This document shows, piece after piece, positions 14,368-30,862 of a stretch of DNA of 64,000 bases (its first letter is position 1; the number at the start of each line of letters is the position of its first letter). A program made the position numbers and the translations under genes. Source of the stretch: Nitrososphaerales archaeon (GTDB lineage Archaea > Thermoproteota > Nitrososphaeria > Nitrososphaerales > UBA213); NCBI GenBank assembly GCA_965197925.1, contig CBDAOC010000020.1:992001-1056000 (forward strand), read 5' to 3'. The notes below the pieces were generated by a model that worked only from the letters and a program-made list of their open reading frames with translations, did no database searches and was not told the origin of the DNA.

Positions 14368-17226
14368 TTGAATAATCATTTTTTAAAAGTGTGTCATGTA
14401 GGCGCTATAAGTTTCGTTCTCTTGATCACACAATTTTCGGTATTACCTGCCTTTGCTCATCCATTCACCGTTGATACGGAACCGGTGGGACTTGAGCAGT
14501 TACAACAGTCACCTGATAAAGTAGTGATAACATACAGCGAACCTGTTGAAGAAGGGTTCAGTACAATAAAAGTAACTGATTCTTCAGGTAATAGAGTAGA
14601 TAATGACGACGCAGGATTCTATCAGGATGATCAGTCGATGCTCATTGTTACTTTACAACCACTACAAGACGATGTATACGCTGTTACATCGAAAGTCTTG
14701 TCACAGGTGGATGGGCATGTGGTAGAATTCACTTATGCCTTCATTGTAGGTATTCCAGGCGTACCCATCCCTGCTGATACTGGTGTTCAAACTACTACGC
14801 CCGCGATTTTCTTGCCAGAATCATTATCCAGATTTCCTGGACTTGTTGGTCAGGTGATTATTGTTGGTATCAGCTTTGCAACACTATTCCTTTGGAGACC
14901 TATAGATAAGGTAGGCAACATTGACTCTGCTATCTCACAGATTAGATCCTCAATTGACCGACGATTTAAGAAACTGTTGATTATTGGTGTGATACTTGTA
15001 TTGGCTTCAGGTTTTGCAATGATCTTTGTACAGGCAGCATCATTAGGAGCTGGTATTGAAACTGCACTTGCAACAAATTTCGGTAGTACTTGGCTTGTAA
15101 GAATGTTGATAGCGTTAATAATCCTAGGGTTATACTTTGCTCTAAGAACTAAGAATCCTCTGAAGAAAATTCATCATGTATCTATTCTTGCAGTTGGAAT
15201 AGTATTGCTCGCAACAACTACCATGATGGGTCATGGTTATGCAACTACAATACCAATTGCCGGAGTACTGGACTTTGTACATAATTTGGTGGCATCGGCA
15301 TGGATTGGAGGTCTCATCTACCTTGGATTTGTTGCAATACCTTCTATTAGGAAAATAGGATTGAATTTCAAATCTGCTATTATCGCATTGCTAATCCCAA
15401 GGTTCTCAATGATGACCGTGGTTATTCTTGGGGTAGTAGGGATAACAGGACCGCTCTTACTATGGATGCTTGAAAGCAATGTCAATAGTCTCCTATTGAC
15501 ATCTTACGGGAAGATTCTGATAACCAAAATTTCGCTTGCTGGGTTTATGATTGGGGTAGGAGCATTCAATCAATTCATTATTCACAGTAAGTCAGTTACT
15601 ATCATTAAGTCAGGTGAAGGTAGTAAACGAACGGGTGTGTATAGGAGGTTCAACAAAAGTCTCAAGGTAGAGTCAGCAATAGGTATTGCGCTTTTGTTAA
15701 GCGTCGCTCTCTTGACGAATACATCCCTTCCAGGGGGTGAGTTGCCTGTTGAGACATTATCTGCAAAACAGATTGATGATACTCAAATAGTCGATGGGAG
15801 TTCGCAGAGGAAGTTAATGCAGACATTATTTGTTGATGAATCTATAGTAAATATTTCAATCAAGCCTGCAAGGATTGGAATGAATGAGGTGACGGTAACC
15901 ATAACGGATAGTACGGGTAAGGCGTTGGACGACATTGAGAAAGTCCAGATAAAATTAACACAAGTAAAGGAAGGCATAGGCCCACTAATTTCTGGATTAA
16001 CGAAAGTTAAAGATACAAATTTTGATGGTAATACTACTTTAACTGCAAATGGTCGTTGGAATATAGAAGTTCTGGCCCAGAGACAGACAGCTTTGAGTAT
16101 TGTTGCATTATTTGATGTGGTGATAAAGCCTGAACTTAGTGAACTACAGTTCAAGGTAGAAGAATATGCAATGCCAGAAGGTGACTCACTCCCCCTTTAC
16201 CCACTTTACAGCGACGGCATTCTGTGGGTAAGTGATACAGTCAAACCAAGGATATGGAGTTTCAATATCGAGAATAAACAATTCAACAAGTATGATCTGG
16301 GTGGAAATCTTACCACTTTGCTTGACCTGGATTCAAAGGGAAATGTATGGTTCCTTGATCCAGTAAGCAGGGAATTTGGTTATCTAACACCCGATGATGG
16401 AATATTCAAGACCTACGGTACACCTTCCTCAGGACTTCCTGTCTCGCTTGATATAGATTTTAACGATAATGTATGGATAGCCTTGCTGGACACAAATAAG
16501 ATTATGAAGTTCAGCTTATCCAACGAGAAATTTGAAATCTTTGTGCTCCCAACGGAAGAATCACAGCCTTCCGCTGTAAAGGTTGACGATTTTGGTACAG
16601 TTTGGTTTGTTGAGGCGGCAGCTGGAAAGATAGGGAGAATGGATCCTGATACGGGAAACATTGAAGAATTCATTCCTCCAACTGGACCACTGGCAGAACC
16701 CTTTGCCTTGTTGATAGATGAAGATGGAAACATCTGGATTGCAGAGCACATTGGCCCTAAGGTAACACGTTTTGATCCAACTCTGCAGACTTTTACCGGT
16801 TTTCTAGCATTGGATCAGGATTCCTTGCCATATGGGATGACGCTGGACAAATTAGGTAACATTTGGTTCGCACAACATGTAGTTGACAACCTTGGTGTGT
16901 TGAATCCACAAAGCAATAACATGGTTGATGTTCAGGTACCAACTCCGACATCCTTTACCCAGTGGTTGACTATAGATGATACAGGAAAGATATGGTTTGC
17001 CGAGCAACGAGGTTCGAAGATAGGCAGTGTAACGATTACACAGAAACTTATAAGCCCCATGATTCAAGCCAAACCCGAAGCGGTACCAAAACTACTCGAG
17101 ATAAATTATGTTGATCTAGTTGCCCCTGGCATGTCTGTAGGAATAATCGTATCTTCTTTATTTTACGTTAAGAGCGTACATGATCTGAGAAGGAGTATTA
17201 AACTCGTGAAGGCAACAGTTCGATAG
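14368..17226 (+). CDS. CopC-CopD-Ig-like-Vgb-type beta-propeller fusion, putative copper uptake protein
   Basis: AFA then HP...P; YSEPVE; VLSQVDGH (CopC); GH, HNLVASAWIGG and YGKILITK (CopD); repeated D..GNIWF blades. Confidence 0.85.
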   Translation: MNNHFLKVCHVGAISFVLLITQFSVLPAFAHPFTVDTEPVGLEQLQQSPDKVVITYSEPVEEGFSTIKVTDSSGNRVDNDDAGFYQDDQSMLIVTLQPLQDDVYAVTSKVLSQVDGHVVEFTYAFIVGIPGVPIPADTGVQTTTPAIFLPESLSRFPGLVGQVIIVGISFATLFLWRPIDKVGNIDSAISQIRSSIDRRFKKLLIIGVILVLASGFAMIFVQAASLGAGIETALATNFGSTWLVRMLIALIILGLYFALRTKNPLKKIHHVSILAVGIVLLATTTMMGHGYATTIPIAGVLDFVHNLVASAWIGGLIYLGFVAIPSIRKIGLNFKSAIIALLIPRFSMMTVVILGVVGITGPLLLWMLESNVNSLLLTSYGKILITKISLAGFMIGVGAFNQFIIHSKSVTIIKSGEGSKRTGVYRRFNKSLKVESAIGIALLLSVALLTNTSLPGGELPVETLSAKQIDDTQIVDGSSQRKLMQTLFVDESIVNISIKPARIGMNEVTVTITDSTGKALDDIEKVQIKLTQVKEGIGPLISGLTKVKDTNFDGNTTLTANGRWNIEVLAQRQTALSIVALFDVVIKPELSELQFKVEEYAMPEGDSLPLYPLYSDGILWVSDTVKPRIWSFNIENKQFNKYDLGGNLTTLLDLDSKGNVWFLDPVSREFGYLTPDDGIFKTYGTPSSGLPVSLDIDFNDNVWIALLDTNKIMKFSLSNEKFEIFVLPTEESQPSAVKVDDFGTVWFVEAAAGKIGRMDPDTGNIEEFIPPTGPLAEPFALLIDEDGNIWIAEHIGPKVTRFDPTLQTFTGFLALDQDSLPYGMTLDKLGNIWFAQHVVDNLGVLNPQSNNMVDVQVPTPTSFTQWLTIDDTGKIWFAEQRGSKIGSVTITQKLISPMIQAKPEAVPKLLEINYVDLVAPGMSVGIIVSSLFYVKSVHDLRRSIKLVKATVR

Positions 17227-17450
17227 TTGTTCTAGAATATACGAAAACGTAAACTAACCAATTTAAAATTTTGACAAATCTGCCGGCTATTATATAATAC
17301 CAAAAAAATTGTTTATGGTTGAATGAATTGGTAACGGCGAGGTTAGGTCACAACGATGTATGGTACTGCATCCTGTTGTGATACTGATATGAGCGTAAAG
17401 GAACTTGAAGGATATATATTCTGTGGGAATTATGCTCAATCCTTAGCCAT

Positions 17451-17795
17451 CTAAAATTCTCGCTCCTCATATTCCTTAGAACGTTTAATGTCATGATCTA
17501 ATGATCTTATGTAATAATCCAGCCATGATAAAACATTTACGTCGGTTTCTTTTTTCCTTAATTCTTCAAATCGTTTTTTCTTTTTTTCATAGTGTACTGT
17601 TTCAGAACCTGTCCAACCCTCAATATTAAAACTCATGCACGAGTATCTTTTTACCTCTTCTTGATCTCCGTATTTTACCAGAAATTCTCTAATTTCTTCA
17701 AATTTTGGTGGAAGAAAACTTGCAACGTAGCCAAGCCTCGATTTTTCGTCTTCATTTATCCATGCGATAATGTCAGACATGGGAATTATAGTCAT
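17451..17795 (-). pseudogene. Orphan C-terminal fragment resembling the tail of large P-loop NTPase (defence-type) proteins
   Basis: GWTGSE...WLDYYIRSL...EEREF tail pattern; no upstream ORF. Confidence 0.4.
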
Positions 17796-18407
17796 TATTC
17801 CATTCCTTAGCCATTCTCGTATGCCGTGCGCTCTTGAATCTATGGGATCATTCAGAACCAGATTTCAGACATAGGTAAAATCAGACCGAAAATAAGAGAA
17901 ATGAACCTAAATGCAAATCGCAAGAGATTCTGGTTAGGAAGTTTAAAATCAATAGATTCTACAGTATCCAATGATTCTATGCCTTTATCGATGAATTACT
18001 TTAAGAAAGAAGAGATTTAGCTAGATTGTATGGATTTCAATGAATCTGCTCCAAATATACCTGAAGAAAACTAGTTCTTGAGGATGTAGCCACAGCTGTG
18101 CTAAACCTTATTTTGCTTTCGGAATCGTAAATTCCCTCTTAGGGATGCTCATTGTGTAAAATGTGGAGCAATAGGACAGAGGAAGAACTATCAGGACAGC
18201 ACAAACTTAAGGTTCATGAAGGCAATTGAAGGAGATGAAGTTATACGTTTCGACAACACATAGGTGCAGTATGTCTCATGCTAACATTCATGTAGGAACC
18301 TACCCTTAGCAAGTTTTAACAGGACGCAGGCTTGTGCCTACGTTTTCGGTCTAAATACAACTGAAATTTTATCTGTAAGTTCAAGTATAGTTAACATACC
18401 ACTAATA

Positions 18408-21400
18408 GTGATAGAGATGAATCAGCCTAACACAAAAGATGAAATGCTCGAACTTATTAAGAATGAATCAATTAAAAAAAATTATAACTTTGAGACTCTA
18501 CCTGGTTATCTCTTTAAAATAGTATCCAATAGCCTAGAGATCAGGGGTAGTATTCATGAAACGGGTAAGGAGGATGTCAAGGTTAAGGACAAGTGTTGGA
18601 TAGGAATTTGGAATCCTATATGGGAGTTCTTTGATGAACTCGGAGACAGATCAAAATGCTTTATCATTGAAATAGATCATCTACAAAACAACCATGTGGT
18701 CATTCCAGTGGACAGAATACCAGAATCTGCTCTTCAACCAGTCGGCAGTGGTCGTGGTTTGTCATTTATTCTAAAAAGAAAGAATGGTTCTTATCAAATA
18801 AATCGGAATGAATCTTTTTCCCTAACAGAATATACTAATAACCTTGAGAAAATGTATGAAGCGCTCTTGCAGGAATCAGTATCTGCTACTGACTCGCTTT
18901 GCAATGAGATCGTTAAGTTAGCGGATCCACAGAAATATTTGGATTCATTAAATAGAGATACTATTACCAGGTGGACAGAAGCACTAAAACCACTCAATGC
19001 TAAATCGTCAGATGCTTCGTATTACGAGTGGATATCTAAATTGGATTTAAATACACTTACCGAAATTTACGAATTCATTATCCATAAAGAGCAGACTATA
19101 GAAAACGAAATTGATATATCTGCCATACCCCGTGTTGATAACCTGTCGGGCGCTGCTGTTGTAGTCATGTGCGGTCTTCGTTTCTTACAGAGACAGGTTT
19201 TAGGTAAAGCCAACATGAATGCTCATAAATATACAGTATTAAAGTATCAACTTCAAAAGGCGTTAGAAGAGCAATCCAATTACTGGGTATTCGTCGTTAC
19301 TGATCATCCTAAAGAGAACCTAACTACGCAACAAATCTACGAAACGAGAATGAAGGATAAGTTCTGGGGCTTAAACGAAAGAACCCCGTTTCGTAATGTA
19401 CTTCGCAAGGGAGACAGAGTCATTTTTTCCTACGGTGCAAAGCAGTTTCTAGGTATTGCAGCATTGGCCTCTAGTTCGTTTGAATTGTCAAATGAGCAAA
19501 AGACCACTTTGTCACATGATAATGAATACTTTAAGCCGGATTATGGTGTGACGTTGACGGATATAATCACGTGGCAAACACCAAAGCCGATAGAATCAAT
19601 TATTGATATGCTGTCGTTCATAAAAAACAAAGATCAATACCATGCCTATTTCCAAGGTGGTATCAAAAGAATATCAAAAGAGGATTACGAAATCATTACC
19701 GGAGATTCCCTTGTACCCAAAGAAGAGATGAAAGAGGAAAGCAACTGGATTAAGGACCTTACACAAGCATTTATTGAACTTGGTGGACCAGGTAATTTCT
19801 ATCGTCTAAGTCAAATATACGAAACTATTGTGAAAATCAGAGAGCAACGGAGTGAGGGTCTGCCTAAGAATTATGAAGCCATGATCAGGTTCTATCTGGA
19901 AACGAATTCCCGTGGTACAGGTAGAGATTTGTTTGCACTGAAGGAAAAAGGATCTGGATATTGGATGTTAAAATCTAGCCCATCTACGCAAGAAAGGGGG
20001 ATTTGGAAAGTCACACCAGGGAAAACTGCACAATATTGGAATGAATTCCTATCAGCGGGAGTTATAGCAATAGGTTGGAATGAGTTACCTGATTTGTCTA
20101 ACGTAGAAAACAAAGAGGAACTCAAAAAATTATTCAGAGAAACATATCCAAATAGAAGTGATGATGAAGTGAATCATCAGACCGCGGAGATTTGGAATTT
20201 CGTCAAGGAAATTAAGGAAGATGATATAATTGTAGCAAACAAAGGAATAACCAAAATAGTTGGAATTGGAAAAGTGATAGGCAATTATTATCATGAACCT
20301 GACTTTGTTTATCACCACACAATTCCCGTAGATTGGTATGATACGAAAGAGAAGGACATACCACCACAAGCTTGGCAAAGGACTGTTATGAAATTAGAAG
20401 AGGATAAGATAAAAGAACTTGGCATTATCACAGAAGTAACAGTAGAAGAAATATACCTGAGAAAACCGCAGAATCTAGCAATAAGAATTCAGAATGTTAT
20501 GGAAAAACTAGCGGTATCAAGAGAGACACTTGAAGATATAGTGACTAACTTACTTGCTGGAAATCATGTGATTTTAATTGGTGCACCAGGAACGGGAAAG
20601 ACAGAATTGGCTAAATTACTTCCGAAATTATTCTTTGATAATAGTGATTCTCTTGATTCCGAAACAAATTACTGTGATATTGTTACGGCCAATGCTGACT
20701 GGACTACCTACGATGTTATTGGTGGACTAAAAAAAGTTGGTAATGATTTGAAGACCTACAAGGGATGCGTAGTAAAAGCAGTAGAGAAATGTTCACGCAC
20801 AAAGAGTCACTGGTTAATAATAGACGAGTTCAACAGAGCCGATATAGATAAGGCCTTTGGTGCTATGTTTACAGCAATGAATCATGGTTTTATTAATCAT
20901 CCATGGCTTAATCCTGATAAAGAAATGGAGGAAGGTGATGTATTAGTACCTGCAAATTTCCGCATTATCACCACGATGAACACCTTCGACAAAAATTATC
21001 TGTACACAATGTCTTATGGCCTGAGTCGCAGATTTGCGCATATAGACGTTCCTGTACCCCCAAGAGATCAAGAGAAAAAAATCTTAGATCGAGAGGTAAC
21101 TGAAAGGTTAAAAGGTTTTACTAGAGAGGAAGTAGAGAATATTCTTAGGTCAAAATTTTTCGTTAATGCAAAGGAGGAGTTGCTTAAAGTTGTCTATGAG
21201 ATTAGAAGCGAGTGTGGTTTACAAGTTGGAACCGCGCAGGTAATTTCAACACTTACTAGTATAGCAACATACTTGTTGCTGGGGAATGAGAATCAAACCG
21301 TAGACAGAGCGTTTCTTTCTAATGTAGTTGCTATTTTTGAAGGTCAACCCGATGACATGCTTGAAAAGATCATAGGTGCAGTGCCGTGGCGAGAGAGTAA

Positions 21401-21443
21401 GAAAAAGACAAAAGAACTCAAAGAGACAAGTCTTAAGGTGTGA
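18408..21443 (+). CDS. mcrB: McrB-family AAA+ GTPase with several N-terminal DNA-reader domains
   Basis: Walker A GAPGTGKT, Walker B IIDEFNRA, McrB NxxD motif MNTFD, LSRRF; EVE-like and wHTH domains upstream. Confidence 0.85.
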   Translation: MIEMNQPNTKDEMLELIKNESIKKNYNFETLPGYLFKIVSNSLEIRGSIHETGKEDVKVKDKCWIGIWNPIWEFFDELGDRSKCFIIEIDHLQNNHVVIPVDRIPESALQPVGSGRGLSFILKRKNGSYQINRNESFSLTEYTNNLEKMYEALLQESVSATDSLCNEIVKLADPQKYLDSLNRDTITRWTEALKPLNAKSSDASYYEWISKLDLNTLTEIYEFIIHKEQTIENEIDISAIPRVDNLSGAAVVVMCGLRFLQRQVLGKANMNAHKYTVLKYQLQKALEEQSNYWVFVVTDHPKENLTTQQIYETRMKDKFWGLNERTPFRNVLRKGDRVIFSYGAKQFLGIAALASSSFELSNEQKTTLSHDNEYFKPDYGVTLTDIITWQTPKPIESIIDMLSFIKNKDQYHAYFQGGIKRISKEDYEIITGDSLVPKEEMKEESNWIKDLTQAFIELGGPGNFYRLSQIYETIVKIREQRSEGLPKNYEAMIRFYLETNSRGTGRDLFALKEKGSGYWMLKSSPSTQERGIWKVTPGKTAQYWNEFLSAGVIAIGWNELPDLSNVENKEELKKLFRETYPNRSDDEVNHQTAEIWNFVKEIKEDDIIVANKGITKIVGIGKVIGNYYHEPDFVYHHTIPVDWYDTKEKDIPPQAWQRTVMKLEEDKIKELGIITEVTVEEIYLRKPQNLAIRIQNVMEKLAVSRETLEDIVTNLLAGNHVILIGAPGTGKTELAKLLPKLFFDNSDSLDSETNYCDIVTANADWTTYDVIGGLKKVGNDLKTYKGCVVKAVEKCSRTKSHWLIIDEFNRADIDKAFGAMFTAMNHGFINHPWLNPDKEMEEGDVLVPANFRIITTMNTFDKNYLYTMSYGLSRRFAHIDVPVPPRDQEKKILDREVTERLKGFTREEVENILRSKFFVNAKEELLKVVYEIRSECGLQVGTAQVISTLTSIATYLLLGNENQTVDRAFLSNVVAIFEGQPDDMLEKIIGAVPWRESKKKTKELKETSLKV

Positions 21444-21447
21444 TAGT

Positions 21448-22803
21448 ATGAGTGAAGTGAAACCCCCTTTTACTCCCGAACAAAAAGACTATATGGTCAA
21501 TAGATCCATTAATCTTCTTCTCTCTGACTTTGAAAAACCTGAAGCAACCCCTGAAATCGGCTATACTCTTGCCTCCGATCCCGACAAGATAAAAACTGTT
21601 TTCAGTATGATGTTTCTACGGCAGTTTCTTTTTCTAACTAGAGAACTTTTGAATTCTGTAATCCCTCTGATATTAAGACGATTGGTTAGCCTGTCACAAC
21701 GAGTCGAACATGAGTATGAAGGGTTCATAAAGGGAAATGTGAACTGGCATAAAACGATTCTGGCACAGTTAGAAAAAGAGGGCGTGTTTGTTGTAAGGAA
21801 ACCTACAAGAGAATTTTTGACTCCAGAGAATACACTACTAGCCTTGACACTTCGAGAAGTAAATATTCATACAGGAGATCTGATCAGTTTCTTTAAACCA
21901 AACTTGATAGTCGAAAGAGAAAAACTTAGGAAGATAAAGTTAGTCTCACAAAAATATTACCAAAATATCTATTTGCAGTCTTGTGTTGAAAGAGCGACCA
22001 AATTTCTTAATCTAGAAAGGAACTTTCTACGAAACAAACTTGCAAAGAATATGTCGAGTCACACTGAAAGATATCAGATGTTCTGTGATTACGCAGAGAA
22101 AGCAATCGTAAGACGCAGGATTGTCAATAAGAGTTACTTAGACTTGCTTGTATGGAGAAGGGCCTATGCTGATTTGGTAAATGGATTTGCATCACTGAGT
22201 AAGAAAGAGTTCTTGCAAAGAAAATGGGAAGACGACAGACTTTATGAAATATGGGCTTTCTGTGAAATACTTGCTAGTGCGAAACGTTGGAAAGTTAACG
22301 TCAAACCCTTCAGCGCTCTGTACCAGAGTCGAGGCAGACCTCTTTATTACCTGGGAACACTGGAAACAAATCCTGTATATTATAACACATCGCTTGAAAT
22401 AGAAAGTAGTAAAGAAATTATTCCTGAACTGGAACTCCAACTACAACGACTTTTCGTACGAGGCAGCAGGCCAGATATGATCGTTGCTAATACGGTTTCG
22501 CCATATTCCTCTATAATTATCGACATGAAGAATTACCTTGACACTAAAGGAGATGCATATGTTAAAGTCCTTGGCTATATGAAGAACTATAACGTGCAGA
22601 ATGGTGCAGTGGTTTATCCGGTCGATATTAAACATAAAGATTTGGTCAATCCTGTTGAAGAGTTGCCTAACTTTGTTCGTACCGAGGTTTTAAATGGGAA
22701 TTTTATAGCATTAACATTGAAACCTGGAAGAGATTTCGAGAATATGAACAGTATTGGTCTCAAAAAGTTTACAGAATTTCTTGCTGATAAAGTGTTGAAC
22801 TAG
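21448..22803 (+). CDS. mcrC: McrC-like PD-(D/E)xK nuclease
   Basis: Starts 4 nt after the McrB stop; KGNVNWHKT, TPENTLL, LYEIW and RPD...IIDMKNY motifs. Confidence 0.75.
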   Translation: MSEVKPPFTPEQKDYMVNRSINLLLSDFEKPEATPEIGYTLASDPDKIKTVFSMMFLRQFLFLTRELLNSVIPLILRRLVSLSQRVEHEYEGFIKGNVNWHKTILAQLEKEGVFVVRKPTREFLTPENTLLALTLREVNIHTGDLISFFKPNLIVEREKLRKIKLVSQKYYQNIYLQSCVERATKFLNLERNFLRNKLAKNMSSHTERYQMFCDYAEKAIVRRRIVNKSYLDLLVWRRAYADLVNGFASLSKKEFLQRKWEDDRLYEIWAFCEILASAKRWKVNVKPFSALYQSRGRPLYYLGTLETNPVYYNTSLEIESSKEIIPELELQLQRLFVRGSRPDMIVANTVSPYSSIIIDMKNYLDTKGDAYVKVLGYMKNYNVQNGAVVYPVDIKHKDLVNPVEELPNFVRTEVLNGNFIALTLKPGRDFENMNSIGLKKFTEFLADKVLN

Positions 22804-23141
22804 GTTTCTATTTAAGGAGGCCTAGCGTTGGACTGAGGAACTTGACTAGAAAAGCCAAGAATTGTTTGTTTCTTGGTTCAGCGAATTTTGTAGATTCCTT
22901 CTGTTCCAGGGTGAACTCTGCTTATGAAGCATCAAATAGTGAAACAGTTTCTTTTCCCTACACAATACTCAGCCAAGTTCTGTATGTTGATCTTAGCAAT
23001 TGTAATCTCTTCCATTCTTTGATACCAATCTAACTTTATAATCTGTGACAGAGAGTGATTTGTAATATTTTATGAAAAAATGGTAGAACGATTTCCCACA
23101 ACTTTATTATCAAATAAGGAATTTTCCATATAATCTAATGC

Positions 23142-23750
23142 TTACTTAATTTTGCCTAGCTTATTAAGAGCTATATCTTTGTTATTCAATGCTTTAGCAT
23201 CATCAGGATCTATAGCCAGAGCTTTATCAAAATACGTAATAGATTCCTCATAACTGCCTAATTGACCAAGAGATGTTCCCTTGTTATACAATGTATAAGC
23301 ATCGTTAGGATCTATATCCAGAGCTTTATCAAAATACGTAATAGCATCCTGAGATCTACCTAAACTATCAAGAGCTATACCTTTGTTATTCAATGCTTTA
23401 GCATCGTTAAGATCTTGTTCAAGAATGCGATCGTATCGTTCTATAGCTTTATCATATTTCTTAGCATAATAGTAAGAGTTCGCTTCCTTTAGAAGATAAT
23501 CTATATCAATAGGCAACTTTTGATTCAATTTCTCAAGTTCTGTTCTCAACCTCTGAATTTCTTTATCACGTTTCTCAAGTTCACTCAGAAATTCCTCAGA
23601 AACGTCTACTTGTTTGTCCGGAGTTATCTGGTTTTCAATTCCTTTTGCCGTCATCATGATTTTTTGATTTTCTATCACTTTGTATATCATCTGTTCTATT
23701 GTGTTAACATGGTTGTCAACACTACTAACACCTTGAGCAACTTCCGTCAC
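23142..23750 (-). CDS. Tetratricopeptide repeat protein (possibly 5'-truncated)
   Basis: 34-aa repeats NNKGIAL..LG...AI.YFDKAL.IDP; 102-nt DNA repeats. Confidence 0.85.
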   Translation of the reverse strand: MTEVAQGVSSVDNHVNTIEQMIYKVIENQKIMMTAKGIENQITPDKQVDVSEEFLSELEKRDKEIQRLRTELEKLNQKLPIDIDYLLKEANSYYYAKKYDKAIERYDRILEQDLNDAKALNNKGIALDSLGRSQDAITYFDKALDIDPNDAYTLYNKGTSLGQLGSYEESITYFDKALAIDPDDAKALNNKDIALNKLGKIK

Positions 23751-24087
23751 ACCTTTTCTAATATCCTTCCTTTCCTCCTTAGCTAACTGTAATTCATCGA
23801 GTATTCTAGAACTGAAAGTAACAATTCAGTTTTGGTAAAGAATGTGTGTAAGAACTGTAGTACCGAGAACGCAATTTACTGGCAAAAAACAAACGCTTAA
23901 TCTACAAGATGAAGAGTTCTAGTTTGTGATGTTTACTAGTAAGCCAATTTACCAATGAAGCATATACTGCATTTTGGACTAGAACTATGCAAGCGTGGTC
24001 TTAAATACTCACGCACAAAATTTGATTAACAATTATTTTATGCGAGTTTCACAATTAATTTGAACATGGCAAAATTATCTGAAGACA

Positions 24088-24170
24088 TCATTCTATGCAT
24101 ATTGTAAGCAATTACCCTAATGTTAATTCCCTGCTCTGCATCTTAACAAGTCTTGATGTTACATGCTCTC
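24088..24170 (-). mobile_element. Inverted 3' relic of the same IS5-type transposase
   Basis: Reverse complement matches about 25003-25085. Confidence 0.65.
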
Positions 24171-25118
24171 GGCTCTGTAGAAACCATGGATTTTAGCCCA
24201 TTGTATATCGAATTGCACCATTGGATCAATGTGTTACGTGCCATGCATCCTATGCATGAAAGAGTCTAGATATGTCAAACTTGCCAAAACTATGTTGAAT
24301 GTGGTAATGAAGGCCAGAATTCCTCCATACATGCACAGGAAGGGCAACCACATCCATACGGTCTGGCAGCATACCATCCTGCTGGCATTCAGGCAGCATG
24401 AAGGGAAGAGCTGCAGAAGGTTTGTGGAATGGTTGCATGAAGCATGTCATCCCGGAATGTTTATGCAGCTAGGCAGGGTGCCACATTATACAACGCTCCA
24501 GAAGTTTGCCTCAGGAATCAATGGCACCCTGCTGTACAGAATGGCATCCTCATTCATACTTCTCACCAAGATTAGAAAATTGTTGGTAGGAATAGACGCT
24601 TCCGGATTCAGATCCAGCAATGCATCATCATACTATACGGATAGAACAGGGATAAGGAAGAAGTACATCAAGCTATCGATAGGTGCTGAATTAAGAGAGC
24701 AATAGCTGTATTGAAGATAAAAAGCACCTAAACACGATACCATAAATTTAAACACATTATGGAAAGAGCATCAAACATAATGCCACTCTAAAGTTGTAGC
24801 AGACAAGGGTTATGATAGCGAAGCAAATCATGAATTTGTACGAGAACTTGATGCTGTCAGTATAATACCAGCTAGATATGAAGATGTTCCAATATGGAGA
24901 ACGCATGGAAGATATAGGAAGCAAATGAAGAGGAAGTTCTATACACATCTATACTATCAAAGAAACAAGAATGAGACTGTCTGTGGTAAAGAGGATGTTT
25001 GGTGACCATATAGCATCAAGAATGGTGAAGATGCAGAACAGGGAATTAACATTTAGGGTAATTGCTTACAATATGCACAGAATGACTGACCGTCTATATA
25101 GTATGGTTTCTACAGAGC
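24171..25118 (+). mobile_element. IS5-family element with an inactivated transposase
   Basis: TIRs GGCTCTGTAGAAACCAT / ATGGTTTCTACAGAGC; PHYTTLQKF, IDASGF, ADKGYD and RNKNET motifs interrupted by stops and frameshifts. Confidence 0.85.
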
Positions 25119-25134
25119 TGATATTTCCTTGCAT

Positions 25135-26466
25135 CTACTCCCTCAAATGAGGTGCGGAACCATTGTGGTAATATCCTATAGCGCACCGCATGCTGCAAAA
25201 GTAATCGTAGTTCTCGTCCTTAATTTCTGGTGGATTGTGATAGTAACAAACGTCCTGCATGAGTATGGCCTCTGCAGTTGTGCGTGCGTACACCTTCAAC
25301 AGCGTGTTGACATCATCCCATCCCATTGATGCTACAAGGGTTGCATTACTTGCGGTCCTCCGCATCGCTGCATGCGCCCCGCTGTGCCTTAACACGTATA
25401 CGGGCTTGTTTGCCCAGTACCATTCATCCGTTCCTTTGGGATAATTCCACTTTTGGTGCATGCCATTGTGCTCGTCGTAATGCGCCCTGTCAATTTTGCC
25501 CAGGGATATGTAATAATCACTCAGTGCAGATGCAAGCTCGCTCTCCAGTGCAATGACACGGGCATTACTGCCAACGTCGTTAGTACAGAACGTTGCACCG
25601 TGCTTCACACGCTTGATTATTTCAATCACCTTGGGATGTATTGCCATCTTGTCAAAGGCACGATCTGTCTTGGACTCGTATAACGACATGATTGCGTACT
25701 CACCATGAACGCCCTTGGCATCGATTGGTCTGATCTCGAATTTGTTCACCATCGTGATTCCCGTCTTGGTCCTGGGAAAGACCTCGTGCAGCACTCCAAA
25801 TAATTCCTCAAAGCCATAACCACGCATGAACTTGAGCCCCCGTTCAAACTCCCTGTCCGTAAGCTTCACGTTGGCATATGCACCAAAACGCTTCTTCTTG
25901 CCTGACATGATGCCCGTGATGCCACGTGGAATGGCAATGCCATTCCTAATCATGAAATTACGGGTTGATGATGTGTAACGTGTTATCTCCCTGGAACTGA
26001 AATCGATGTTATTGAGTTGACGTGCGTACCTTGCCTCGCCTGCCTTGAGCCTTCTTTCAAACTCCTTTAGCAGGGCAACGCTTGTGTCAATATCCTGGAG
26101 AAGTGCGTCAGGGTGAATGTTCAGCGTGTTGCATACGACGTTCAGGCCTTGTATCATATGATTAACCGATACCGCTGGCTGCCCATTCTTTCCAGCGGTC
26201 ATCAAGTCGTTGAACCATTTCTGGACTGATGGAATTTGTAAAAATTCAGACCTTGCCATTTCTGCATATTGTACCTGCTTCCTGTCCTGTTCTGACCTGA
26301 GTAGATGACCAGTATTGGGGTCTTTTTGAAGTTTCCCAGCCTTGACTAATTTATTCCATTCTAACCATACCCATTGTTCTGAACGATTCATAAGGGAGGC
26401 AATTTCACTCCTGCTCTTTGATGAGATGCCTTTGGACTTGTTGCCGATTGTATGCTCATATACCAT
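25135..26466 (-). CDS. Divergent tyrosine recombinase / integrase
   Basis: FPRTK (R), ESKT (K), YVLRHSG (box B), MGWDD...KVYA (W and catalytic Y); visibly more GC-rich than the flanks. Confidence 0.75.
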   Translation of the reverse strand: MVYEHTIGNKSKGISSKSRSEIASLMNRSEQWVWLEWNKLVKAGKLQKDPNTGHLLRSEQDRKQVQYAEMARSEFLQIPSVQKWFNDLMTAGKNGQPAVSVNHMIQGLNVVCNTLNIHPDALLQDIDTSVALLKEFERRLKAGEARYARQLNNIDFSSREITRYTSSTRNFMIRNGIAIPRGITGIMSGKKKRFGAYANVKLTDREFERGLKFMRGYGFEELFGVLHEVFPRTKTGITMVNKFEIRPIDAKGVHGEYAIMSLYESKTDRAFDKMAIHPKVIEIIKRVKHGATFCTNDVGSNARVIALESELASALSDYYISLGKIDRAHYDEHNGMHQKWNYPKGTDEWYWANKPVYVLRHSGAHAAMRRTASNATLVASMGWDDVNTLLKVYARTTAEAILMQDVCYYHNPPEIKDENYDYFCSMRCAIGYYHNGSAPHLRE

Positions 26467-26531
26467 CTGGGTTAGTTGCTGTTGATCTTCCTCGCCACCG
26501 GCACGGTTCTTCTGCCAGGAGAATCTAGTTC

Positions 26532-26675
26532 TTATGTTCCCTCACCTTGACGGCATTCCATGCACAAAAATTCACGATCGGCTGGATTCGAGCAGTCACA
26601 CCTCTCTATCGTGCTGTGAAAGTTGCATCCAGTGCATCTTATCTCATGTTCATGTGTTAATACATTGGTAGTCAT
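26532..26675 (-). CDS. Small Cys-rich zinc-binding protein, 47 aa (not in the ORF track)
   Basis: MTTNVLTHEHEIRCTGCNFHSTIERCDCSNPADREFLCMECRQGEGT; start overlaps the upstream stop (ATGA). Confidence 0.65.
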   Translation of the reverse strand: MTTNVLTHEHEIRCTGCNFHSTIERCDCSNPADREFLCMECRQGEGT

Positions 26676-26827
26676 GCTTCGGCCTCAAGATTTTCGAGTT
26701 TTTCACGTAAGGCTAAATCGATGAATTGAGTTGGATTGGACATTGTAGGATCTATGTTTCTATCTACAATTGATTCTATTTTTTCTAATATAGCTGTTCG
26801 AACTTGTACACCACTCCATTTTTTCAT
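26672..26827 (-). CDS. Small ribbon-helix-helix protein, 51 aa (not in the ORF track)
   Basis: MKKWSGVQVRTAILEKIESIVDRNIDPTMSNPTQFIDLALREKLENLEAEA; strand-helix-helix pattern. Confidence 0.75.
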   Translation of the reverse strand: MKKWSGVQVRTAILEKIESIVDRNIDPTMSNPTQFIDLALREKLENLEAEA

Positions 26828-26844
26828 ACGATAACCTTATCGTA
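26827..26844. promoter_or_regulatory. Perfect palindrome, putative operator
   Basis: TACGATAA-CC-TTATCGTA lies between the leftward TATA box (TTTATATA on minus, about 26850-26857) and the RHH start. Confidence 0.65.
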
Positions 26845-26927
26845 CTCCATATATAAATTGTACGCTAAATTTATCATAAATAATTTACAGCTAAACAAAT
26901 ATACAAATTTTGTGAGAAGATTATGAT

Positions 26928-27314
26928 ATGGTAAAAAGCGATTGGAGGACAGTAAATGTGAAAAAATCTCTACTTGAACAAATTGAAAAAATACTATACA
27001 GTGATGAAGTAAAAAAAGAAGGCATCACAAATATGTCCCAATTTATAGATTCGGCATTAAAGGAAAAAATCGAAGACATAGAACAAAAACGCATGAATCA
27101 TCTCAACATGTATGATGACCACATAAAAATTATGGACAACAATCTTGGCAAAATAGGCAGAATCGTATCTGTATACTTTAAAAAAGGAAATAAGCCGTGG
27201 TGTGATTACTGTGAGGAATCAGATTGCATCCATGTCCAGTACGCATGGGAGATTGCAGACGTGCGAAAGATTCTGGAAAAACATAGATTTAGTCCTCCTC
27301 CGTCAAGGGTATAG
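26928..27314 (+). CDS. RHH regulator with a C-terminal SWIM-like zinc finger
   Basis: WRTVNVKKSLLEQIE...SQFIDSALKEK (RHH); CDYC...CIH. Confidence 0.75.
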   Translation: MVKSDWRTVNVKKSLLEQIEKILYSDEVKKEGITNMSQFIDSALKEKIEDIEQKRMNHLNMYDDHIKIMDNNLGKIGRIVSVYFKKGNKPWCDYCEESDCIHVQYAWEIADVRKILEKHRFSPPPSRV

Positions 27315-27351
27315 TTATTGAAAATAAGATACCTAATGCTGGAATGATATA

Positions 27352-27744
27352 TTAAAGAAAGAATCTATAGCGTTGATATGTTGTCATGGGCATAAGCCAA
27401 GGTTTCATGTCGTAAAAGGTTCTGCATCCAGAGTGCGATGATCTTGATTGGAATCTTGTAAGTAGTTCTATTGTGACAGAAATGTTGTCCTCCGGGAACA
27501 GAAGGAACCTTTCCGCCTGCCGCTTGTACTGTCTTGCAGCGATGTTCAGGATGCTTATCAGCCACTTCTTATTTTTTTTGTATAGTCTGATCCTGTTTAA
27601 ACAGCACATGCATTTGTGTTCGGTTACTCTGGCATAATGCCCGCAATTCTCACAGAATATTATATGTCTTCTATGGTCCTTGAGGCTTGATTTGAATTTT
27701 CTGCAGTCGACCTGGATACTTATTCCTGCCCACCCTTGGGGCAA
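27352..27744 (-). pseudogene. Zinc-ribbon protein of the virus-like element, probably frameshifted
   Basis: CENC...CMCC motif; the C-terminus appears to continue in another frame. Confidence 0.45.
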
Positions 27745-28077
27745 ACATCTTATTGATGCCCTTCTTGCCCTTTACATCATCGTACTCATAGCGCACCTTG
27801 GTCTGTGTCAGCTCCTTTATCAAGGCACCATTGATTGACCTGGTCGCCGTTAGTGACCTGATGAACAGGTTGTAATAATCTCTTGCAAGGTGCCTTAGTT
27901 TCGGTGGCAATGCGTGAGCCAGTAACGGTATGTGCTCTATCTCAAAAACCGCCAGGGGAGGGCATCTGTGCTTATCATAGAGGAGTAGAGTTGCCTCATG
28001 GGATCTGGGTAGTAGCTATCGCCCTGCCTGTTGCTGTTGCTCTCCTGTATGAGTTCCATCAGCCTATCGCTGGACAA
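27671..28077 (-). pseudogene. Virus-like hypothetical protein, frameshifted near 27955
   Basis: TTG start at 28077 (MSSDRLMELIQ...) joins by frameshift to PLAVFEIEH...RSLTATRSINGALIKELTQT. Confidence 0.45.
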
Positions 28078-28168
28078 TGGTTGGTGTTATGCAGCATGTG
28101 GTTATGACGTTGAATTTTTCAGTTGGGCAATCGCCCTGTTAATGGTTCAGGTTCCAATGTGCGCATGT

Positions 28169-28663
28169 TCACATGGCATCAAGCCATTTTTTACCCTCAA
28201 CCTCGAAAGGGTCATTATTGATGGTAGTTGCGTTACGTCCTACAGGATGACCATAACCATAAAGCAGGCCGTCCGATGGTGGTGGATAGTTTCTCATAGT
28301 CTTACGCTTGCTTTTACTTTTACTCTTACCCTTCTTCTTCGTCTTCTTCATCTTCTTCGTCTTCTTCACCTCTACCCTGTATGGTGCAAATGGATTCCTA
28401 TTGGAGTCTGTCGCTTTCGCAATACGGTTAATTTCTTGTAGTTCACCGACCACACGACCTATTGGTGACTGTCTTGGATAAGTCCTCAAGGATTCTTTCT
28501 TTGCGGCTTCCCCTGCCCTCTTCGCAACTTCTTTCTTCATTTGCTTGGCCTTCGCTTCCTCATAAATGGCGTCAAGTTCCTTCTTGGTCTTGTATTTTAA
28601 AGCCTGCTTTTCCTTGTATTTTTTCGTGATGCTGCTTATCCTGTCTCTTATTCCTGCGGGCAA
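28169..28663 (-). CDS. Very lysine-rich basic protein
   Basis: 164 aa with a KKTKKMKKTKKKGKSKSKSKRK tract; TTG start preceded by the repeated promoter motif. Confidence 0.55.
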   Translation of the reverse strand: MPAGIRDRISSITKKYKEKQALKYKTKKELDAIYEEAKAKQMKKEVAKRAGEAAKKESLRTYPRQSPIGRVVGELQEINRIAKATDSNRNPFAPYRVEVKKTKKMKKTKKKGKSKSKSKRKTMRNYPPPSDGLLYGYGHPVGRNATTINNDPFEVEGKKWLDAM

Positions 28664-28925
28664 TGGTTGGTGTTATGCAACGTATGGTTATAATGTTGTA
28701 ATTTGGAAGCCTTGCCCTCCTCGCTATCCCTGCCTGGTGGTTTGGGTAGTTCGCACCGTGTTGGTTTTGGTAGGACGCTGTTTATTGCGTTGATGTATAA
28801 CATTATATCATACACCTTGTCCTGCTGGATGGCAGATACTATGCCCTGCCTGTACTGTTGTAGTGTCGTTGTAAGTATCCGTAGTAGGCCTGTGTTAGGT
28901 CGGTAGTAGTAGGGAGGGTGGTCAA
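28648..28925 (-). pseudogene. Virus-like hypothetical protein, likely frameshifted near the 5' end
   Basis: QYRQGIVSAIQQDKVYDIMLYINAINSVLP helical segment; possible TTG start at about 28925 in another frame. Confidence 0.35.
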
Positions 28926-28936
28926 TGATGTTGAAA

Positions 28937-29236
28937 GCATTAAAACATACTATATATATTATAAGCACTTCGTTCCTTCGTATCCACTGGCTACCCCCCC
29001 GAAAAATGTTAGTGTTACTTAACTTTTTATTTTATGTTAACTCTCCAGAACAGTTAATATCCCTAAATTTAGTTGTAGCGTTGTAAGTACAACGGTTTAC
29101 GCATTAAAACATACTATATATATTATAAGCACTTCGTTCCTTCGTATCCACTGGCTACCCCCCCGAAAAATGTTAGTGTTACTTAACTTTTTATTTTATG
29201 TTAACTCTCCAGAACAGTTAATATCCCTAAATTTAG
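28937..29236. repeat. Identical 136-bp direct repeat with a 28-bp spacer
   Basis: 28937-29072 equals 29101-29236. Confidence 0.9.
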
Positions 29237-29306
29237 GTAGCACAACTTTACGTAAAGGTGCGCTACCTAGTGCGCACTTTTTTGATAAAGGTGCGCTACC
29301 TAGGTA
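29234..29306. repeat. Iteron-like cluster of 17-18-bp direct and inverted repeats
   Basis: TAAAGGTGCGCTACCTAG at 29253 and 29286; inverted near-copy at 29234-29250; palindromes AGTGCGCACT and TACCTAGGTA. Confidence 0.8.
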
Positions 29307-29434
29307 CTCTACCTAATTTCAAAAACTGTGTTAGTTTATGTCCTATTTTATGGTAAACATAAAATAACACGCCTATCATCCCCGATATTAACACTTCTAG
29401 AACTAATTTATAACTTAGAAGTACAAAATATGTT

Positions 29435-30862
29435 ATGCGAGTGGGTTTAGCAATAATTCTTGCCGTGGTAATAGCAAGTTCAATTCTCTTGAATAGTTAT
29501 TCAATATTACCTCCGGCTTTTGGACATGGACTTGGGAAGCAAGAAACGCAGCCTCAAAATGTTGGCGATCGCATAGCTTTCATGATTGTGAAGATTGCCC
29601 CAGAATTGATAGAATATGGGGAATTGAAGGATATTATGTTAACAATGGAGTTAGTTGACGCTCAGACTGAGGAGAAGATACCAGGTACAGCTTATCATCT
29701 AATTATAGAGAAATTTGCTGATGACATATTACTGTTGGACGAAGCCTTTCATATCATGAGTGACAGCGATACACTTGTTATCAATTTCAAAACTTCTGAC
29801 GAGGGAGATGTAGTAGTAAATGGTATGAAGATAGGTGAAACCCTAGGTTACATGGCTTCTGAGGATGAACTTGTTGTTGAGGGTCCTATTTTCAACCAAC
29901 TGGGGTTGTATCGTTTTACGATCGAGGTTGTTGCAATGGAGGGTGAAACTTTGGATCGGGAAACAAGATCGACATATGAGGCCCTTATTACGCTTGCTGA
30001 GAGCAAGACCTACATTGTAACATACGATGAGGAGGAGTATAACTTGGAAACGATCTCGTATTTTGATAATATCGTAGATTTCAAGTTTGATCCTGACAGT
30101 AAGAGTATAAAGATGACAATGCCATTCAGGTGGCAGAAGGATTTCGTGGAGCAGATACCATTGTTGCATGCTGAGATCTTCATCCCAAAAGCGTTCTCAG
30201 AATTGGCGGGACAGGAGTTAGGTGGTTTGATAAATGGTATTGAAGATCCAATATTCGTTGACCGTTCTCCTCCGGACGAGGTGGTGGTTCACTATATGAC
30301 ACCGAACAACCGCCTGCTCAACCTTTCGGAATTGATCACCAATGATGGGATGGAGGATGATATAGTTGAATTTGGCCTTGTGAGTATGGGTGCTGTTGAA
30401 GAAGAAAATGGGAAACCCTTACCCATGCCAGTTCCAACAGGTGATTGGTCACTTGTAATGCAAACTTCCACTAGTGGTGAAAGTATTCTGGTTAAGGTTC
30501 AATGGTCACCATTAACCATCAAAACTGAGGAGGATGTTACCTTCAAGCTGGAGTTCATAGATCCTGATACAAAAGAGGAAATCGAGGACGTTAGATACGA
30601 CATAATGTTGTATGATCCTGATGAAAATCATGTGGATGCTTCACATAGGTCAAAGCAGACGACAGGTACCCAAAGCTACACATTTGATAGAGTTGGGACT
30701 TTTACACTGCTACTTACGAACGTGAATTTTAGTGGAGAAAGTGCAGAATTCCACCTGTCCGTCGTTCCCGAGTTTCCAGTTGGAGTCTTGATTGCAACCG
30801 GTGTTATGATAGCGGGTATGTTGGCATTGGTGAGGTTCAAAGGACCGGCAATCAAATTATAA
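29435..30862 (+). CDS. PEF-CTERM surface protein with predicted mature His1
   Basis: PAFG then HGLG; SYFD...MPFRW...HAE...VHY motifs; VVPEFP + TM. Confidence 0.85.
   Translation: MRVGLAIILAVVIASSILLNSYSILPPAFGHGLGKQETQPQNVGDRIAFMIVKIAPELIEYGELKDIMLTMELVDAQTEEKIPGTAYHLIIEKFADDILLLDEAFHIMSDSDTLVINFKTSDEGDVVVNGMKIGETLGYMASEDELVVEGPIFNQLGLYRFTIEVVAMEGETLDRETRSTYEALITLAESKTYIVTYDEEEYNLETISYFDNIVDFKFDPDSKSIKMTMPFRWQKDFVEQIPLLHAEIFIPKAFSELAGQELGGLINGIEDPIFVDRSPPDEVVVHYMTPNNRLLNLSELITNDGMEDDIVEFGLVSMGAVEEENGKPLPMPVPTGDWSLVMQTSTSGESILVKVQWSPLTIKTEEDVTFKLEFIDPDTKEEIEDVRYDIMLYDPDENHVDASHRSKQTTGTQSYTFDRVGTFTLLLTNVNFSGESAEFHLSVVPEFPVGVLIATGVMIAGMLALVRFKGPAIKL

Follow-up and report, generated by a model that had tools for sequence, protein, structure and literature searches.

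A conserved divergent pair of ribbon-helix-helix genes as a candidate dormancy switch in an integrated element of a Nitrososphaerales archaeon

What do two related regulator genes, placed back to back in front of an integrase operon, do in the genome of a Nitrososphaerales archaeon? A preliminary description of the window, by which we mean the whole stretch of 64,000 nucleotides that was analyzed, had proposed a switch resembling lambda cI/cro, built from two ribbon-helix-helix (RHH) paralogues and controlling the integrase. How proviruses of ammonia-oxidizing archaea become dormant and wake is undescribed in the portions of the literature examined, where the known archaeal switches belong to halophiles, Sulfolobus, and one gut methanogen.

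The regulator pair and the element that carries it

The layout of the pair was confirmed in coordinates, strands, lengths, and the 100-bp spacer that separates the divergent genes (Table 1), and the ATGA overlap of the small RHH gene with the 47-aa gene, followed by the recombinase gene, is present as claimed. The proposed paralogy also holds: the long and small proteins share 20 of 47 aligned residues (BLASTP, E 3e-10), and a profile made of long-protein N-termini only retrieves the small protein from among 9520 ORFs with an E value of 7.6e-11. The small ORF is a conserved gene under purifying selection, with dN/dS values of 0.15 to 0.27 in four of six near-kin pairs, two being saturated.

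Table 1. Features of the integrated element (window coordinates) and predicted operator motifs by locus
Feature	Position	Strand	Length	Remarks
Whole integrated element	17231-29401		~12.2 kb	Between two host genes; both ends match end sequences repeated in the genome
Right end (integrase-downstream side)	17231-17236			TCTAGA core, then ~70-bp conserved end sequence; 13 such ends in the genome
Cargo	18408-22803	+		EVE + AAA_5 protein and overlapping 475-aa partner
Decayed insertion sequence	24169-25121	+		14 bp past the integrase stop; inverted repeats I9; many genome copies
Tyrosine recombinase (integrase) gene	25135-26466	-	443 aa	N-terminal HTH, C-terminal Cys cluster
Cys-rich (zinc-finger) ORF	26532-26675	-	47 aa	ATGA overlap with the small RHH stop; kept in six copies
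Small RHH paralogue gene	26672-26827	-	51 aa	Heads the integrase operon; likely leaderless; likely early antagonist
Predicted operator O1	26827-26844			Half-sites at -17 and -6 from the small ATG; palindrome TACGATAA-CC-TTATCGTA
TATA box candidate TTTATATA	26850-26857	-		Between O1 and O2; would serve the small gene and the integrase operon
Predicted operator O2	26861-26878			Half-sites at -51 and -40 from the small ATG
Predicted operator O3	26911-26928			At the long gene start; one half-site good, the other degenerate
Long regulator gene	26928-27314	+	128 aa	N-terminal RHH and C-terminal C92/C95/C100/H102 domain; likely master repressor
Other-arm remnant	27352-28968	-		Cys-rich ORF, 119-aa gene split in two, 164-aa ORF, truncated 95-aa gene
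Short direct and inverted repeats near the left end	29234-29303			In all copies; candidate recombinase arm sites or origin
Left end	29396-29401			TCTAGA core; 8 copies align inward and diverge outward
Predicted motif TACGATA/TATGATA				Window locus and L102
Predicted motif TATAGTA				Copy D
Predicted motif TACAACA				Copy E
Predicted motif TGTAATA				Copy F
Predicted motif TATGTAA				Copy C
Predicted motif TGTGCTA				L076

The long protein is, by its structural model, a member of the RHH superfamily. The model (pLDDT 81), in which the ribbon strand is not formed in the monomer, matches solved RHH structures over residues 4 to 54 (NikR, Z 6.1, rmsd 1.3, 46 residues aligned), its further best fold matches, over residues 1 to 57, are RHH as well (omega, Z 5.8; PutA, Z 5.6), and RHH_1 is found on 14% of the members of its Atlas cluster with a score of 0.94. 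The small protein can be assigned to the same superfamily by homology; it has no Pfam match itself, and its positional counterpart in L045 matches RHH_1 (E 3e-8).

All 49 homologues examined keep C92, C95, C100, and H102 in the C-terminal part of the long protein, while the N-terminal part varies widely. The C-terminal part had been called SWIM-like and proposed to be a zinc-binding sensor, neither of which we can uphold: its motif is CxxC-x4-CxH and that of the SWIM zinc-finger profile CxC-xn-CxH, the likeness being confined to a weak fold match (E 0.29), and Pfam SWIM (PF04434) gave no match at the long gene at E<=10, so we refer to it as the Cys/His domain. The fold search with the long-protein model barely probed this region, Atlas gave no name for it, and the prediction of a complex of two copies with zinc scored 0.01 and returned no answer. 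No Pfam match to a self-cleaving protease domain was obtained in the 49 long-protein members, whose tails are of ~70 aa with the Cys/His motif. Pfam, PHROGs, and PDB sequence searches named neither regulator, and the viral fold library gave no match under E 0.1. In the phage collection, the integrase had no match and the long protein a single weak one, in the host flank of Pro-Nvie1.

Residues and fold both identify the 443-aa protein as a divergent tyrosine recombinase, and it looks intact. R232, K266, R360, W383, and Y393 are present in at least 90% of 75 sequences, H361 is also conserved, and the first His position of the active site is Tyr in the 443-aa protein; its fold matches XerH (Z 13.0, rmsd 4.0, 256 residues aligned), and Phage_integrase is found in 8 of the 75 members. 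In two of four sequencing runs (X9 and X11), contigs run from position 17237 directly into the far flank across a single TCTAGA, which means that the site is empty in related strains. Active-site residues, fold match, and empty site together bear out a real recombinase and an element that has moved. Limits of ~25.1 to 29.4 kb, with the right end lost to an insertion sequence, were ruled out once the right end was placed at 17231, and integration at a tRNA gene was dropped because the window has none. The element splits a 952-aa gene (14368-17226; a copper-resistance fusion by eye) from a 475-aa secreted-protein gene (29435-30862), and these two adjoin in the empty-site strains. Near the left end, 28937-29236 contains the same 136 bp twice, 164 bp apart; since part of this stretch is skipped by joints in several runs, either a recent duplication or an assembly artefact is possible.

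The source genome has six copies of the small-RHH/zinc-finger module, five of them with the recombinase, and its integrases are 86 to 96% identical behind six different regulator pairs. The TCTAGA-targeting recombinase element spreads by riding a multicopy insertion sequence: by our own count of flanks, 15 of 21 element ends sit in a palindrome inside that abundant sequence, 42 intact palindrome sites are left among the 951 TCTAGA of the genome, and one element copy is flanked by its two halves, one per side. Over the 21 ends, this landing pad is used in both orientations (for example, C19:418971 and C19:428853 of G000). The cargo of the window copy pairs an EVE and AAA_5 protein with a 475-aa partner that has no family match; by its architecture we take the pair to be McrBC-like. 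A TPR gene is also carried. Defence genes near sibling ends (L140 = G000:C20:36501-52500; L162 = G000:C13:70000-84065; L141:1148-2545) differ and include a Cas1-Cas2 fusion, type II restriction with Vsr, Hachiman HamA with a split HamB, and PDC-S01. In copy B (L061:5990-6770), a different regulator pair precedes a 96% identical recombinase, and the remnant of the old long gene lies 400 bp on, past inserted genes, which looks like a regulator swap. At G000:C17:33269-34445, two right ends lie ~1.2 kb from one another in facing orientation, which may mark a miniature derivative that is non-autonomous. Contig G000:C16 (24379-97254) carries 28 tRNA genes in 73 kb, unlike the rest of the genome; it is possibly a virus-like element or a foreign contig.

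An ATPase of sibling copies matches 11 records of Nitrosopumilaceae spindle-shaped viruses (E 1e-15 to 6e-21), and in one sibling a block of small membrane proteins and a 1298-aa protein lies behind it, with homologues in similar blocks of two other genomes. The window copy has neither the ATPase nor the membrane-protein block. Gene content thus suggests that the window element is a cut-down provirus related to spindle-shaped viruses, the ATPase of the siblings being its only tie to named viruses. IMG/VR was scanned with both the long-protein alignment and the ATPase, and no relatives were confirmed there. A 76-aa protein with two hydrophobic segments (L141:3031-3261; G000:C13:79500; C18:169235) is 48% identical to one in L154; this two-helix protein, whose virus matches lack significance, is a candidate spindle-virus capsid protein.

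Distribution of the pair in other genomes and elements

Long-protein matches occur in 86 of 151 genomes of the order, mostly as a distant host-type orthologue, and the close form is found in 19 of 401 genomes of one family. The preliminary description had called for a search for the pair in related genomes. Distinct long proteins were scored where 300 bp of upstream sequence was available. A long-only profile, which never saw small proteins, detected a divergent small RHH at 20 of 42 close, 1 of 24 distant, and 0 of 13 host-type long proteins; a small-protein profile, circular for its own members, raised this to 23 of 42, 8 of 24, and 0 of 13. The pair thus recurs at no fewer than 20 of the close homologues, many of them in mobile elements, and it is a real, conserved regulatory module. 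Against a switch, 19 to 22 of the 42 close homologues have no detectable partner, and several partners are decayed. At L095-L101, L107, L115-L120, and L133-L135, an intact long gene stands next to a decayed small partner and early operon, which is what retention of the repressor alone would lead one to expect.

Control of the integrase by the pair, as first proposed, fits the window, where the recombinase gene lies behind the small gene, and L047, L054, and L055, where a homologue of it lies downstream of the small gene, but it is no general rule: several other elements have the small gene at the head of ATGA-coupled replication operons with helicase-, primase-, clamp-, ParB-, or actin-like genes (labels by eye), and in L071, L072, L074, L099, and L110 a different integrase-like gene (by eye) converges on the long gene.

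The same C-terminal domain stands on a winged-helix-like N-terminus in L089 and L091, opposite a small ORF, and in L086, L089, and L091 such a protein diverges from a small AbrB- or RHH-like ORF; the domain, and not the DNA-binding fold, may therefore define the switch family. The host-type orthologue (L067:6958-7350, at G000:C20:266969; L032-L042, L056, L058, and L059) is conserved and stands alone on the chromosome of many relatives, often opposite a tRNA or HTH gene; it could be a domesticated repressor or, conversely, the origin of the viral one.

Predicted operators and co-variation of the partners

Three operators, each made of two 7-bp half-sites 11 bp apart, are predicted in the spacer (Table 1). 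TTTATATA is, judged by the consensus, presumably the TATA box of the leftward promoter. The perfect palindrome TACGATAA-CC-TTATCGTA, described earlier as lying between this box and the small gene, was located there, and it takes in the A of the small ATG. Taken alone it is borderline (p=0.05, 200 shuffles), and it is retained in the diverged homologue L102, in which both half-sites of the O3 counterpart are good. Two further short palindromes had been named: ATTTATCATAAAT (26869) includes a real half-site, but ACAAATTTTGT (26903) is not retained in L102. As one of six copies of a 7-mer within the spacer, the palindrome is not chance-like (p=0.005 versus shuffles). The rest of the element has no further good operator pair, with a single weak match at 19661.

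Single palindromes are weak evidence, and the position signal is stronger. It was measured, like the co-variation, on a set of 25 pairs. Near-duplicates (L055, L077, L078, L083, L105, L109, L112, L114, L118, L124, L127-L129) were left out, as were frameshifted partners, L018, L073/L108, and the winged-helix cases; since the pairs are hand-picked and kin, the p-values overstate the significance. In 14 of 24 spacers (L046 was omitted, its start being unsure), the 7-mer at -6 from the small ATG recurs at -17 within 1 mismatch (7 of 17 after kin thinning), against a background of ~2% of positions. The mean mismatch dips also at -51 from the small ATG and at -17 and -6 from the long ATG; the last base of the -6 site is the A of ATG, which makes the long-start match look better than it is. 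Half-site pairs are therefore placed alike over the set, at both gene starts and upstream of the small-gene TATA box, which lies between the pair at the small ATG and a second pair near -51/-40. In 12 of the 25 spacers, some 7-mer is repeated more often than in shuffles. The exact -17/-6 register is not kept in more distant pairs (copy B, L044-L047, L054, and L081), which counts against a switch.

According to the available text of PMC3413123, the specificity of RHH proteins resides in the ribbon, and the helices determine how paired sites are spaced. Sequence distances between operators follow the ribbon of the long protein (Mantel r 0.40, p 0.0002; thinned, r 0.35, p 0.027) and track neither its C-terminal domain nor the ribbon of the small protein (r 0.15, p 0.09; thinned, r 0.0). 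The idea that both proteins read shared operators is thus plausible for the long protein but is not borne out for the small one.

Small proteins are more similar to their respective long partners than to the remaining long proteins (permutation p 1e-5, both with 25 pairs and with 18 thinned pairs; exact p 1/120 among five copies of the source genome). Synonymous codons of these five copies show no excess among partners (37/79 versus 93/203), so recent gene conversion was rejected as the source of the likeness within the source genome. Over all 25 pairs, codon identity is higher for partners (48% versus 37%), a difference that a common genome composition can account for. The excess likeness of cognates is found in the helices no less than in the ribbon, so that the partners co-evolve through shared DNA, contact, or both; this speaks against the switch insofar as heterodimers fit too, as does the weak ribbon effect in the small-protein clade of the window (p 0.018; 0.08 thinned). 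A tree of 58 columns intermixes small and long proteins with 8 label changes, and a single origin of all small proteins is not rejected (AU p 0.18).

A candidate switch, its alternatives, and known systems

From the observed genes, fold, synteny, site geometry, co-variation, and mobility, we infer how binding, direction of repression, bistability, and induction may be arranged. The long protein is quite probably a repressor. That the pair and its three two-part sites form a dormancy switch of an integrated virus-derived element, in which the long protein represses the integrase operon and the small one, made early, shuts the repressor off, has in our estimate a slightly better than even chance. 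Each 7-bp pseudo-palindrome would take one RHH dimer, two dimers standing one helical turn apart. Long protein on O1 and O2 would bracket the TATA box and cover the small gene start, and so silence the genes for the small RHH, the zinc finger, and the recombinase; once more abundant, it would fill the weaker O3 and limit its own synthesis. When repression falls, the small protein would be made first, bind the spacer in the manner of Cro or Arc, and keep the long gene off, whereupon the recombinase would be made and the element would excise. Action of the small protein on DNA, and not through mixed dimers, is the softer half of this scheme because its ribbon does not track the operators. The Cys/His domain would be a natural candidate for oligomerization or sensing, and the 47-aa Cys-rich ORF is, as a guess, a possible directionality factor. 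Through joint changes of ribbon and operator, each copy may have acquired its own specificity, or immunity type; the different predicted sites of the six copies in the source genome suggest immunity groups.

It is more tentative, falling well short of an even chance, to assume a lambda-like bistable switch of RHH paralogues that evolved independently and is common to viruses and plasmids of ammonia-oxidizing archaea and their kin, with the Cys/His domain as the induction sensor and with ribbon and 7-bp operator as a natural recognition code by which immunity groups are set apart and six or more related proviruses can coexist on one chromosome.

Alternatively, the small paralogue could be a dominant-negative antirepressor, forming mixed RHH dimers that, without the C-terminal domain, cannot hold the paired sites. 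That partners co-vary not just in the ribbon but also in the two helices of the dimer core, A and B, would agree with this, and so would the tracking of operators by the long ribbon only. However, the pairs of L075, L110, copy F, and L084 have near-identical ribbons on divergent bodies, which suggests shared DNA recognition, and a pure decoy would presumably need its ribbon under purifying selection less; we consider the decoy unlikely. Lone long genes are common, the host-type orthologue being without partner at 13 of 13 loci, and O1 and O3 each lie over the start of their own gene, as would be expected of two autoregulatory repressors that share a spacer and make no bistable switch, the small one limiting the early operon like CopG and the long one serving superinfection immunity or host-gene tuning. 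Such a pair is hard to reconcile with O1, O2, and O3 being one motif per locus and not two, with the location of O2 between the promoters, and with the diversification in specificity of co-resident copies, and we regard it as quite unlikely.

The switch might also be real in relatives but inert in the window copy, left over from a defective provirus that is retained for the defence genes it carries. The lost ATPase and membrane block, the split 119-aa gene, the insertion sequence behind the integrase, and a stop codon in the small gene of copy F point this way. No circle junction was seen in 8 run comparisons and depth was not raised, which also counts against the switch itself; the sole RNA run gave a single contig, of 229 nt, outside the pair. 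Yet both regulators and both ends are intact, as are the three sites and the active site of the recombinase, and related strains lack the element at this site; we consider an inert leftover highly improbable.

As a dormancy-switch candidate, the module is specific and widespread, and its sites are predicted to the base, so that it can be tested without culture of the host. About 20 natural pairs of ribbon and operator make a ready data set for RHH-DNA recognition, the RHH pair is a marker for proviruses that annotation misses, and the TCTAGA-targeting recombinase family, often landing in abundant insertion sequences, moves defence cargo around the source genome.

The right operator of lambda cI/cro has divergent long and short regulators, three related operators, a short gene that leads the early operon, and specificity types among relatives. 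The comparison with it drawn in the preliminary description stands in part: at the level of sequence, a divergent pair with three related, predicted operators between divergent promoters is found here too, but the proteins are RHH and not HTH, there is no self-cleaving protease domain, the promoters are archaeal with TATA boxes, and each operator is two 7-mers 11 bp apart. In immI of P22, Mnt represses arc-ant and Arc represses mnt (available text of PMC11016777). The mnt and arc genes (NC_002371) are, as here, divergent and paralogous RHH genes, one long (83 codons) and one short (53 aa); the 90 bp that separate them hold operators and opposed promoters, and the two are 48% identical over 40 aa, so the layout here is a variant of a known arrangement. 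P22 has two different operators, one per protein, whereas one motif builds three sites here; its downstream gene is ant, in place of the zinc finger and recombinase; and it exerts antirepressor control in a secondary immunity region, whereas the operon here holds recombinase or replication genes. The Cys/His tail of the long protein is unlike P22, and no sequence alignment of Mnt with the long protein was found.

Among archaeal systems, the repressors of the haloarchaeal SNJ2 (Orf4) and Tebi-SV1/PV1 likewise lie beside an integrase operon with an operator between promoters (PMC10123103, PMC13612827); as far as the available main texts go, they are winged-helix proteins, relieved by Orf7 and the Orc1-like Orf8, with no paralogous partner, and RHH is not mentioned. 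MSTV1 has a wHTH/Orc1 pair. F55 of the spindle-shaped virus SSV1 is an RHH lysogeny repressor whose target repeats cover the start sites of both the early genes and its own gene, described in the accessible text of PMC5569661 as a single 6.3-kDa protein with no second domain and no divergent paralogue. The Nipumfusiviridae (Nitrosopumilaceae spindle-shaped viruses) have the ATPase in common with the sibling copies only, not with the window copy; in the two genomes compared, out of 11, it is the sole match (BLASTP E<1e-3; the other core genes encode MCP, a zinc-binding protein, and three unknown proteins) and the RHH pair is absent, and the words lysogen and provirus do not occur in the available main text of PMC10866085. 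For thaumarchaeal integrated elements, the provirus section of Krupovic et al. 2019 (PMC6563490) describes no such switch, and CopG/RHH genes are among the matches listed in its supplementary table. The available main texts of PMC11375127 and bioRxiv 10.1101/2025.08.23.671958 do not describe the module, and their supplements may list such proviruses. A search of the literature, mostly of papers outside subscription, found no archaeal description of a divergent RHH-pair module. The module has likenesses to P22, lambda, SNJ2/Tebi, SSV1 F55, and MSTV1 and is a member of none of these systems.
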